Source: Staphylococcus phage Fi4S2
Sequence record: PV037056.1
DNA: 64,000 nucleotides
Reading direction: 5' to 3' (one strand)
Position numbers and translations under genes: made by a program. The notes below the pieces were generated by a model. It saw nothing but the letters and a program-made list of their open reading frames with translations. It was not told the DNA's origin and did no database searches. Shown piece by piece: positions 59,530-61,816 of this stretch. Within the stretch, counting starts at the first letter, position 1, and each line of letters starts with the position of its first letter.

Positions 59530-61783
59530 GGGTTGCAAAAATAACAAACTTATGTTATATTAAATATAGAAAAGTAGTTTCCATCTAATCAACGCTCTAA
59601 CCGCTAATTAGAGATTATTTATTGGTCACTCAGAGGACTCTAGTATACTATAAGTATATGTGGAGTTCTTTCAATTCCACTTATAGCATAAAAAACTGGT
59701 TACATAAGTGCTATTATGTAATCTGTATATCCCACAAAGTTTAGTGGTTTTTAGAGGGTATACTCCTATAGTAGTAAGTTAAAGTTAGCTACTCTAGCTT
59801 ATGTAAACCTATGGAGAGTTCTATAGGGAACATCTTATATAGTTGCTGAACACGTGCTGTGACTATCCTGTTATCAAAAAACTTATCTTACCATCTGAGG
59901 TTACAGGTTTCATGATGGGACTGTTTTTCGTGGTACCCGTCCCGTTTTCCAGTATAAAACAATAACCGATAAGTGACGGGAGATATTGCTAGGTTCATAC
60001 CACTTGAGTTGCTTCGAGTGAGCCTAGCGGAATTACCACCATACGCTTACACTAGCCTATGGTGGAGATATAAGTACCTTGTAACTAAACCATATGAGAG
60101 TTGGCTGGTGTCGGGTCGCTACTTGCTGGCATTGACCCCTTATGACATTTCAGAAAGTTACTAAAAAACACTAGTTAGAACGTATGCTAACTAGGACTGT
60201 AATAGTCGATAGGAAGTTTAAAGGGTTTCACCTATCAAACTCATTTCTACCCGTAATTGAGGATAAATAAAGTACGTGTCGTCTTACTGGCGTGAGCAGT
60301 TACACGCGATAACTCAACGTGTTTAAATAAAGAGTGAACTTGTGGGTAGAACAGTGATGATAAACCCTCCGTCTATGTAAAAGACGTAAAACACAACCCC
60401 GTAGGTGGTTCGTAACCTTCCGTTGTGCTTAGGGTTGTGCCGAACAACTGCGTATGTATTGTAGTGACATCGAACCAATAATCTACAAATAGCTAAATGG
60501 AGCACACTTTGTGTGTTTCTATAAGCGTCCTGTGACTCGACCCTCGGGGCGTTTATAGAAGTATACAAAATTAGAAGGGTCGAGATAGTATGGAAAAAGA
60601 GATTTGGAAAGACATACCAGGTTATGAAGGTCTGTATCAAGCAAGCTCATTAGGTCGTATTAGAAGCTTAGACAGAAAATTAGTTACCAAAAATGGAAGT
60701 GTTAAGATTATTAAAGGTTTAATTAAGAAGCCTTCTATAGACAAAAATAATCGGTTTACAGTAGGGCTAAGCAAAAAAGGTAAAAGGAAATCATTTACCG
60801 TTCATAAAATAATTGCGCTAACATTTATTGGAGAAAGACCTGAAGGTTATGAAGTTTGCCATATAGATGGAAATAATCAAAATAACAAGCTAGGCAATAT
60901 TAGGTACGATACACATAGTCAAAATGAGATTGACAGGTATAGATATGGGGATAAAACTCCATCAGGTAAACTAACTATTAGAGATGTTTTAGAAGTAAGA
61001 AATCTATATGCTACAGGAAAGTATAATCAAAAAGAACTATCTAGAAAGTTTAAAGTAAATCAAAAAAGCATATGCTATATTGTTAATCGTTCATCATTTT
61101 CTTGGTTAAATGATGATGGTTCTATTATTGAATCAGATACAACGATAAGTTAATTATCAGACATACGAGAGATACCGTATGTTGCCTGGCAGAGGCTTTA
61201 TATCTGACTGTTGGTCTCGACTGGTGACTCCTTCCAGTCCAGTATCTAATTCACACAGAGCCTTAGCGCTCATCTAAATTTCCGTGGTTCTGACTGGTGC
61301 GCACTGGTCTTTACTGAAAACTTAGGGTTTCCCTGTACTAGCGTTAGTATCGGTTAAGCGTTAGATAAGGTGAACCGTACCTACTTTCCAAATAGGGATA
61401 ACTCAAAATTAGATAGCAACTTGAGAGTGAAATAAGTCGGACAGCTTTATATTCAGAAGAAGTGTCAGAGAATATAAAGTTATGGCTTGAGATACCGAGC
61501 CTTGATTATTAGGTATCCGACACTTGGCGTGTAACCTAAGTTTATGGTTAGATGGGTTACAACATAAGGAAGCTGATTTTCTCTGTATAGCTTAGAGGAA
61601 CTCCATAAGACAGCCAAACCACTGTATATTCAGTTACTATGACAAAGCTATATGAGGTAAACTCTTATATAGCTCCCTGTTATAGTGCATACACGCAGTG
61701 ACGAGCGTTTCAACATCAAGGATACTCATACAATTGTCGTAAAATAATATTAACCGTAATCTAAGTACGGGAGCCTTGATGGG
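59530..61783 (+). ncRNA. GC-rich (~45% vs ~30%) apparently non-coding structured region flanking a free-standing HNH gene; candidate large structured RNA(s) or a degenerate intervening element
   Basis: ~1.06 kb upstream and ~0.63 kb downstream of the HNH ORF have no convincing ORFs and show a marked GC shift with many local stems (e.g. ccaccatacgc...ctatggtgg; ctcgaccctcgggg...agggtcgag). The region is closed by a strong terminator and followed by a promoter. Confidence 0.4.
60590..61153 (+). CDS. HNH homing endonuclease with an N-terminal NUMOD4-like motif (187 aa)
   Basis: WKDIPGYEGLYQASSLGRIRS (NUMOD4). HKIIALTFIGERPEGYEVCHIDGNNQNNKLGNIRYDTHSQN (HNH_3-type). Confidence 0.7.
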   Translation: MEKEIWKDIPGYEGLYQASSLGRIRSLDRKLVTKNGSVKIIKGLIKKPSIDKNNRFTVGLSKKGKRKSFTVHKIIALTFIGERPEGYEVCHIDGNNQNNKLGNIRYDTHSQNEIDRYRYGDKTPSGKLTIRDVLEVRNLYATGKYNQKELSRKFKVNQKSICYIVNRSSFSWLNDDGSIIESDTTIS

Positions 61784-61816
61784 ACACCTATTAATTAAAA
61801 TAGGTGTTTTTTTTTT
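61784..61816 (+). terminator. rho-independent terminator closing the GC-rich region
   Basis: cacctatt-aattaaa-ataggtg hairpin followed by 10 T. Confidence 0.6.

Follow-up and report, generated by a model that had tools for sequence, protein, structure and literature searches.

Staphylococcus phage Fi4S2, a Twort-like myovirus (Herelleviridae, Twortvirinae), carries a 2.3-kb island at positions 59530-61816 of the 64,000-nucleotide (nt) stretch analysed here (sequence record PV037056.1, hereafter the window). In this island two non-coding flanks surround a free-standing gene for a NUMOD4-HNH endonuclease, and its identity and architecture as a modular non-coding RNA (ncRNA) locus are well supported. 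It is probable that the 3' half is related to lncRNA1, a long non-coding RNA (lncRNA) of Kayviruses, and that the island as a whole is an enlarged, endonuclease-invaded variant of the lncRNA1 locus, free of transfer RNAs (tRNAs).

Kayvirus-type phages are leading candidates for Staphylococcus therapy, and their two lncRNA regions are top transcripts whose role is unexplained. In fact, three RNA sequencing (RNA-seq) studies of phages K and 515A1 place lncRNA1 among the most abundant phage transcripts, with no explanation of its role (PMC7698491, PMC9241854, PMC11598898). In vB_SauM-515A1 it measures 570 bp and makes up 2.2% of counts (PMC7698491). In phage K it has been mapped to 13595-14229 (PMC9241854) and to 13,688-14,215, in a study where lncRNA1 and lncRNA2 together account for 27% of reads and are described as RNAs of unknown function (PMC11598898).

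A preliminary description of the island, made from the letters alone, had suggested a structured, non-coding single unit. This core holds, given the homology of the downstream half to lncRNA1, which RNA-seq has verified, and the covariation in three modules. The finer identities proposed at the time fared less well and are taken up with the rival explanations.

Relationship of the downstream flank to lncRNA1

Pieces of the flank that follows the HNH gene occur in 263 phage records, nearly all of them from Staphylococcus Twort-like phages. In Kayviruses they lie within the non-coding gap that extends from tRNA-Met to the phosphatase gene cluster. The first module of this flank, M1 (61160-61250), is 80% identical to phage K 13969-14053, inside lncRNA1; the last, M4 (61680-61818), is 82% identical to phage K 13625-13756, and the K copy scores 43.4 bits as the RNA motif DUF3800-I. 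Because the M1 and M4 blocks fall in the region defined by RNA-seq, we read the downstream flank as the probable orthologue of the abundant lncRNA1. All island features described here lie on the + strand.

Two Rfam scans were made, one of the whole window at gathering thresholds and one of 59300-62000 at E<=10. A single match in the island exceeds its gathering score, and this is M4, which combines the DUF3800-I motif (RF02969) with an intrinsic terminator; its 45.5 bits are borderline against a gathering score of 44.2. In M4 a helix P1 encloses hairpins, the UUAA-CG..UAA..CG core is present and the core hairpin is invariant. Four P1 pairs are compensatory in 17 cells, 99.2% of cells are paired, and no shuffle reaches either the compensatory cell count or the covariation score. 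The module ends, as in the DUF3800-I family, with a Rho-independent terminator: a 12-bp stem at 61781-61810 followed by a U-run to 61816, the strong terminator already recognised in the preliminary description. In IMG/VR the M4 core was found in 2 contigs. Elsewhere in the window, the terminator hairpin that follows the phosphatase gene at 63667-63762, CACCUAUC...GAUAGGUG, closely resembles that of M4, and the M4 covariance model gives it 30.8 bits from the hairpin alone.

M1 is an rli62-like RNA motif that begins with a helix P1 (61161-61167/61176-61182) and contains the invariant core GCCYGGCAGAGGC. Compensatory changes affect 9 of its 20 pairs (26 cells), a level reached by 0 of 500 shuffles, while controls slid along the alignment give at most 8 compensatory cells. 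The rli62 model (RF01486) scores 37.9 bits at 61061-61231. As this is below the gathering score of 83 and the shared core covaries, M1 is best called a relative of rli62, not a member. Its core is widespread, with copies in 359 phage records that include temperate Staphylococcus phages such as 80alpha, Listeria A500 and Lactobacillus Nyseid. The A500 copy, nested in rliG, reaches 79.7 bits as rli62; in 80alpha M1 directly follows the small RNA (sRNA) SprX, and in Nyseid it sits beside two tRNAs. In SAP23 it is headed by its own consensus promoter, TTGACA-17-TATACT. No second copy of M1 was found in the window or in the relatives that lack M1.

Between M1 and M4 lie two further modules. Module X (61251-61362) is a variable linker with the hairpin GACUGGUGCGCACUGGUC; it is common only to S. 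saprophyticus phage vB_SsapH-Golestan-100 (hereafter Golestan-100), and in other phages its position is taken by tRNA-like or TEG147-like pieces. Module C (61363-61630) is a conserved RNA of 268 nt with 11 predicted helices and no Rfam family. It recurs at 77-93% identity in P68, OPT-SC01, SAP23, PG-2021_35, O1-102, PSU5, 184DA and Golestan-100, with 98.6% of cells paired, 3 compensatory pairs and long invariant runs. The + strand is favoured for C because one-sided changes mostly pass via G-U pairs. Its closing helix 2, the sole predicted module-spanning pairing, is invariant in 9 sequences and, for want of variation among them, says nothing about a large fold. We consider module C a candidate for a new 268-nt RNA family. 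It is followed by an optional linker hairpin of about 47 nt (61631-61679), which is present in the window, Golestan-100, P68 and PG-2021_35 and absent from SAP23, PSU5, 184DA and O1-102.

Module combinations differ among relatives

When 18 loci are compared, the modules turn out to be combined in many ways. M1 abuts M4 directly in the IMG/VR contig L014, and the two are separated by 109 nt in S25-3; P68, OPT-SC01 and 184DA carry C and M4 without M1; CG and SAP23 have weak tRNA-like pieces inserted (32-33 bits). In PSU5 the unit is ORF-free (ORF, open reading frame), about 0.85 kb long, and runs from a promoter through a leader, M1, a C-type module and M4 to the terminator. The homologous positions in relatives are unannotated or bear tRNAs. 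Because module subsets and orders differ in this way, we regard the modules as independently folding cassettes and not as parts of one obligate fold.

The lncRNA1 loci of K, PG-2021_35 and PSU5 also yield matches to TEG147, an S. aureus small RNA family, at 41-44 bits against a gathering score of 56.1. These TEG147-like modules stand at 1938-1997 of locus L007 (phage K 14437-14496), 1568-1627 of L015 and 2094-2136 of L017; the window has none.

The unit and its upstream flank

At 59533-59561 a sigma-70-type promoter-like site, TTGCAA-17-TATATT with an extended -10 TG, precedes the island's modules. It aligns with the TTGACA-17-(TG)TATACT consensus promoters that head the homologous locus in PSU5 and 184DA. 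Thus the promoter of the preliminary description is present and has homologous counterparts; as a signal it is less impressive, with a 9/12 match to consensus and no enrichment of such sites in the window over shuffles (19 found, 15 +/- 4.5 expected). A scan of the window gave no credible promoter between 59561 and M1, so that a single unit is the simplest reading. The leader module L (59562-59625), with the hairpin CUCUAA...UUAGAG, forms the 5' end of the unit and is about 74% identical to the PSU5 and 184DA leaders; the segment 59545-59694 has a fold z of -3.6. A search of metagenomes with the leader pattern returned 22 matches, which we dismissed as chance hits since they lack BLAST similarity.

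The rest of the upstream flank is a patchwork. Module A (59615-59685) is about 74% identical to a piece that precedes the terminator in the homologous locus of OPT-SC01 and O1-102. At 59874-59920 a degenerate sequence, left over from the 3' part of a module like DUF3800-I, aligns with the O1-102 and OPT-SC01 positions that match the 3' end of M4. A full second copy of DUF3800-I was considered here and rejected: a covariance model built from 12 phage copies gives 5.2 bits, and what stands is the 3' remnant of about 47 nt. The pairwise alignment of the upstream region with M4 scores 52, against 31 +/- 5.6 in shuffles with a maximum of 59. Module B (59921-59983) is a terminator-like hairpin, GGGAC...GUCCC GUUUU, conserved in Twort-like phages; its identity is 92-94% in about 8 of them and 87.5% in 7 others. 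In OPT-SC01 and O1-102 it lies 3' of M4, in place of the M4 terminator. It also has a 23-nt exact match near the gp191 terminator of phage K; as nothing else matches, we rejected the idea that the upstream flank is a homologue of phage K lncRNA2.

The structured non-coding segment 59984-60394 is common only to Golestan-100, at 94.8% identity. Its hairpin at 60171-60194 shows a compensatory double change from A-U to G-C at 60177/60188. Over the upstream flank the two phages are again 94.8% identical, with 46 substitutions and indels of 1, 3 and 3 nt. On the + strand 16 of these substitutions keep a predicted pair and 13 break one (null expectation 10.3/17.5; P about 0.01), against 6 and 21 on the - strand, which gives modest support to an RNA structure in this flank. 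Module D (60395-60487), absent from Golestan-100, has a 90% identical counterpart in the unrelated Sextaecvirus SA2, within a non-coding gap of 1.1 kb that contains a tRNA and lies upstream of terL. The possibility that D is part of a group I intron of terL in SA2 was discarded: the gap holds a normal tRNA and gives no intron match, so it is better described as another intergenic region with tRNA and ncRNA. A search of IMG/VR for further homologues of the upstream flank, by way of the neighbouring DUF7198 protein, yielded none.

The two flanks behave as non-coding DNA. Among the stretches of the window that lack ORFs of 110 amino acids (aa) or more, 59530-60589 (1060 nt) is the longest and 61154-61878 (725 nt) the third longest, in line with the ORF-poor character noted earlier. 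The mechanical ORFs inside the flanks (40-105 aa) have zero matches to PHROG families. With no protein-family remnant detected, the pseudogenised reading frames that had been entertained as another origin of the flanks did not materialise. The content of guanine and cytosine (GC) is raised to a smaller extent than first described. Instead of 45% against a background of about 30%, the flanks average 39.2% and 39.5%, with peaks at 44%, in a window with a mean of 33.7% and a standard deviation of 3.6% (300-nt windows). GC alone is unexceptional, because eight other places, mostly coding, also reach at least 40%. The abundance of local stem-loops was borne out by folding: the flanks, taken in 150-nt windows, reach a mean z near -1.6 on the + strand and near -1.1 on the - strand, below the coding controls (-0.16 +/- 0.94) and the HNH ORF (about -0.3). 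Folded whole, the downstream flank has a z of -4.5.

An HNH endonuclease gene lodged between modules

The gene at 60590-61153 encodes a free-standing endonuclease of 187 aa that belongs to the NUMOD4-HNH_3 class, common in phages, and is identified with Pfam and PHROG profiles (NUMOD4, E 6e-17; HNH_3, E 4e-10; phrog_1492 and phrog_59) and endowed with an intact H-N-H motif. Its presence inside the island, as previously described, is thus confirmed. Neither an IscB-type protein (RuvC plus HNH) nor a HEARO RNA was found; the protein contains NUMOD4 and HNH_3 only. Its best matches are Staphylococcus phage proteins with 45-49% identity, and the nearest (49%) is encoded in SAP23 between the lncRNA2 region and tRNA-Asp. 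As the closest relative lies in the SAP23 lncRNA2 locus, enzymes of this type appear to recur in lncRNA and tRNA loci.

The position of the gene can be compared with Golestan-100, the closest relative, which lacks window 60395-61240 (D, the HNH gene and M1) and is 95-98% identical on both sides. At the HNH site it has an unrelated, stop-filled sequence of 360 nt with no Rfam match (E<=0.5). The HNH stop codon lies 8 nt ahead of the P1 of M1. Because of this spacing, and because the SAP23 copy of M1 has its own promoter, we place the gene between modules and not within one.

Directly upstream of the gene we identified a putative translational control element (60517-60584). A 14-bp hairpin (60517-60530/60546-60560) carries a loop whose positions 60536-60544 are complementary to the Shine-Dalgarno (SD) region at 60576-60584, so that the two are predicted to form a pseudoknot. 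Stem and loop-SD pairing alike show covariation in SEP9, PMBT8 and SAP23: for example, CUCGACCCU/AGGGUCGAG is replaced by CAGCCCUU/AAGGGCUG and by CUGACCUU/AAGGUCAG. The segment 60445-60594 has a fold z of -3.5. We read this structure as a pseudoknot that may sequester the ribosome-binding site (RBS) and hold HNH translation down.

An orphan DUF3800-I RNA

Three features were used to define the DUF3800-I family, namely structure, terminator and a link with DUF3800 genes, and no self-cleavage was found (Weinberg et al. 2017, PMC5737381). DUF3800 itself is an RNase H-fold domain tied to mobile elements and defence systems (PMC10910872, PMC13594972). As a control, a genome scan with the M4 core led to Spiroplasma sp. 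JKS002670 (locus L030, 826-1777), where 15 nt separate a DUF3800-I-like RNA from the gene for a 274-aa DUF3800 protein (E 4.6e-13, genetic code 4) downstream of it. This RNA scores 28 bits with an M4-based model and shares a 21-nt core identical to that of the phage module.

No such gene accompanies the phage module. DUF3800 (PF12686) was not detected among window ORFs of 75-310 aa, larger ORFs being covered less than exhaustively; none is found among the neighbours of the island or of its Kayvirus counterparts, and tblastn of the window with the Spiroplasma protein gave no match. The phage collection yielded none either, in a weak test that used one divergent query. Because no DUF3800 gene was found nearby, we describe phage M4 as an orphan DUF3800-I RNA.

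A working model and its rivals

To explain these observations, we propose that transcription would start at the promoter 59533-59561 and end at the M4 terminator near 61816. The product would be a chain of small independent folds, L, A, B, D, M1, X, C and M4, of which relatives carry other subsets and orders, sometimes with tRNAs or tRNA-like pieces. The NUMOD4-HNH gene would have landed between D and M1; lacking its own promoter, it would rely on the non-coding transcript for its translation, and the pseudoknot over its RBS would keep this translation low. During co-infection the endonuclease would cut relatives that lack the gene, dragging along adjacent modules. Since homing would co-transfer these modules, it could explain part of the module mosaicism.

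What the RNAs do is a matter of more tentative reasoning. By analogy with lncRNA1, and with low confidence, the island RNAs may be very abundant and stable; with similarly low confidence, protein binding is a more likely mode of action than catalysis. M4, the most promising lead, could titrate the RNA that partners a host DUF3800-type nuclease, or imitate it; this decoy hypothesis rests on the orphan state of M4. We can extend this thought and envision the island as an endonuclease-mobilised array of RNA counter-defence cassettes, in which the modules would be abundant decoys or mimics of RNA partners that belong to the host or to mobile elements; we give this rather little credence. M4 would then titrate or misdirect a host DUF3800 nuclease, tRNA-like modules would oppose tRNA-targeting defences and unrelated lineages would swap cassettes by recombination that homing endonucleases drive, a scenario that we hold to be just as improbable. 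If true, such an array would explain both the extreme abundance and the mosaicism of Kayvirus lncRNAs.

Several points weigh against our account. The promoter is a 9/12 match from a class of sites no more frequent than chance, and DUF3800-I clears its threshold by 1.3 bits, with relatives at 38-45 bits and most of them just below it. For the upstream 0.8 kb, Golestan-100 is the one homologue, and divergence from it is about double that of the surrounding genome (5.3% against 2.4%); because at least one decayed module remnant lies inside, part of this flank may be non-functional filler. The covariation of module C is thin, the sequences being close to one another. The unit may yield more than one RNA, because module B resembles a weak terminator. 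Lastly, the protein-binding or decoy role is speculative, drawn as it is solely from gene-neighbourhood logic.

A largely non-functional origin of the flanks is a further rival. The one homologue of the upstream flank, its faster divergence and its decayed M4 fragment, together with weak tRNA-like pieces in the locus of relatives and a recombination junction exactly at the terminator, would fit flanks made mostly of decayed genes, tRNA remnants and recombination scars that repeated endonuclease-driven exchange would have left behind, transcribed incidentally. This seems to us doubtful, because many phages share strongly conserved M1, C and M4 modules that show long invariant stretches and covariation, the phage K homologue is among the most abundant transcripts in three studies, no protein-family remnant was found and the upstream substitutions keep + strand pairing. 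The earlier suggestion of horizontally acquired foreign DNA can be retained in part: modules are common to Sextaecvirus and to temperate siphoviruses, and there is a junction at the terminator. It adds to the RNA reading and does not replace it. Could the island instead be one large RNA of the GOLLD or ROOL type, an obligate fold of 0.6-2 kb with the HNH gene in a tolerant loop? Its size is fitting, it is phage-borne, its Kayvirus homologue stands beside tRNA genes, the same analogy has been drawn for lncRNA1 (PMC9241854) and the z of -4.5 for the whole downstream flank would agree. However, this GOLLD- or ROOL-like label, proposed in the preliminary description, gains no match to either model even at E<=10, and modules are lost or reordered among relatives (L014, P68, OPT-SC01), while M1 and M4 also occur singly in other phages and bacteria. 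We regard a single large fold as distinctly improbable.

The position of the endonuclease gene had also suggested a group I or II intron, or a HEARO/IscB-type element, interrupting an ncRNA gene. An HNH ORF is indeed embedded in structured RNA with a structured element just upstream, Twort-like phages are rich in introns and terL is split in the same window. Nevertheless, we find this hardly credible. The Rfam searches at E<=10 returned no intron, HEARO, GOLLD, ROOL, RNase P or transfer-messenger RNA (tmRNA) in 59300-62000, nor did an intron or HEARO appear in Golestan-100 at E<=0.5, so that none of the known RNAs that had been named as candidates was recovered. No ribozyme core is recognisable; the 187-aa enzyme is neither IscB nor a reverse transcriptase; and the HNH-less Golestan-100 has 360 unrelated nt and not a pair of joined exons. 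Moreover, the gene lies between modules: M1 is predicted to start its own transcript in SAP23, and the upstream hairpin belongs to a predicted RBS pseudoknot that other free-standing HNH genes share. The island might also work as DNA, for instance in packaging, in replication or as a hot spot of recombination, its hairpins being protein-binding sites or cruciforms. In favour are its place directly after the terminase operon, the start of the Golestan-100 record at the terminator and the break in homology at 61816. This role, too, we judge highly improbable: G-U pairs are frequent and pairing is preserved on the + strand only (16 kept and 13 broken, against 6 and 21), which argues for RNA and not duplex DNA. 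No repeat arrays were found, and the phage K homologue of the island is an abundant RNA. On balance, a modular ncRNA locus invaded by an endonuclease gene is the reading that we retain.

Genomic setting and other elements of the window

On its 5' side the island is preceded by the split terminase gene, a 61-aa ORF and then a 168-aa protein; on its 3' side it is followed by a lipoprotein, with a metallophosphatase 1.2 kb beyond. Profile searches assign the 168-aa protein to DUF7198/phrog_1116 and the lipoprotein to Phage_VG64/phrog_478, so the two flanking ORFs are unrelated, as had been stated before. No tRNA was detected in the 64-kb window.

From 40000 to 61816 the window is 97.6% identical to Golestan-100. 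To the right of 61816 this similarity ends and the sequence resembles Kayvirus-type (about 84%) and PG-2021_35-type (92%) phages. The break coincides exactly with the terminator, where the Golestan-100 record has its position 1. The genome is likely recombinant at the shared M4 and terminator sequence; alternatively, an assembly join (chimera) at the same shared sequence may have caused the break.

Other mobile elements are present in the window. The terL gene is split within 55252-58837: a 498-aa ORF (57341-58837) covers only positions 69-233 of the GpA_ATPase profile, and between the terminase pieces lies a 310-aa ORF (56301-57233) with CapR and treble-clef zinc-finger domains. Golestan-100 is annotated with two terminase large subunit coding sequences around one hypothetical gene. 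The split is probably due to an intron that carries an endonuclease-like ORF. At 26802-28210, a 424-aa TnpB-like ORF with HTH_OrfB_IS605, OrfB_IS605 and Cas12f1-like TNB domains is followed after 44 nt by a RAGATH-18 RNA (28120-28210; 65.8 bits, gathering score 44.9), which may be the guide (omega/reRNA) of an IS605-family element in the phage genome. Pfam searches of the window ORFs further revealed an intein splicing domain, a SegE-type GIY-YIG endonuclease and an I-TevI-like DNA-binding domain. With its HNH, TnpB, intein, GIY-YIG and I-TevI-like elements, the phage genome is rich in selfish DNA.

The second-longest ORF-free stretch of the window, 52793-53843 (1051 nt), coincides with a switch from - strand to + strand genes. 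It contains direct repeats of about 147 nt with 72% identity (53249-53525) and several AT-rich inverted repeats; the Golestan-100 record has comparable repeats close to its end. This stretch might act as an origin of replication or as a region of divergent promoters.

Comparison with known systems

What does the island add to the picture of these phages? The locus shows lncRNA1 as a chain of exchangeable structured modules and not as one RNA species. The 3' module of lncRNA1 is the DUF3800-I motif, elsewhere paired with an RNase H-fold protein linked to defence systems and mobile elements, and the lncRNA1 locus is able to grow threefold and to accommodate a homing endonuclease. A conserved pseudoknot, with putative control over translation of the HNH endonuclease, is a further yield.

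The closest parallel is Kayvirus lncRNA1 (about 13.6-14.2 kb in phage K; 13,730-14,300 in vB_SauM-515A1). Like the island, it is non-coding, carries M1 and M4 in the same order with 80-82% identity, ends with the same terminator and lies on the strand of the downstream phosphatase-region genes. The K unit differs in that it is about 0.55 kb long, directly follows tRNA-Met and has neither an endonuclease gene nor module C. The island, by contrast, extends over 2.3 kb behind the terminase operon, without a detectable tRNA, and adds about 1 kb of 5' modules and the HNH gene.

GOLLD and ROOL resemble the RNAs predicted from the island as large, phage-borne, non-coding RNAs that are abundant and whose function is unexplained. 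They typically neighbour tRNA genes, whereas the 64-kb window has none; among homologous loci, those of K, S25-3, CG and SA2 do have adjacent tRNAs. Furthermore, GOLLD and ROOL each have a single conserved fold, in contrast to the mosaic modules of the island, which gives no Rfam sequence or structure match to them.

Single modules have relatives of their own. The M1 core GCCYGGCAGAGGC and its flanking hairpins are common to the rli62/rliG loci of Listeria phages of the A118/A500 type and to the SprX locus of S. aureus phages of the 80alpha type; unlike these prophage sRNA loci, M1 in the island is an internal module of a predicted long transcript in a virulent myovirus. M4 shares with the DUF3800-I family the hairpins enclosed by P1, the UUAA-CG...UAA...CG core and the 3' intrinsic terminator. 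Nearby DUF3800 genes are part of the definition of that family, whereas none was found beside the phage copies, orphans that are predicted to end a longer non-coding transcript.

The invading gene, finally, has well-known counterparts. The T4 SegB and T5 HNH F-Tfl enzymes are free-standing homing endonucleases in phage tRNA clusters, and RNA structure restrains translation of the T4 intron and seg endonuclease genes. As in these cases, the island harbours a selfish gene within a cluster of the tRNA/ncRNA kind, with presence/absence polymorphism and mosaic surroundings. It differs in having no tRNA genes, and in a predicted loop-to-SD pseudoknot that is conserved across several HNH genes of Staphylococcus phages.

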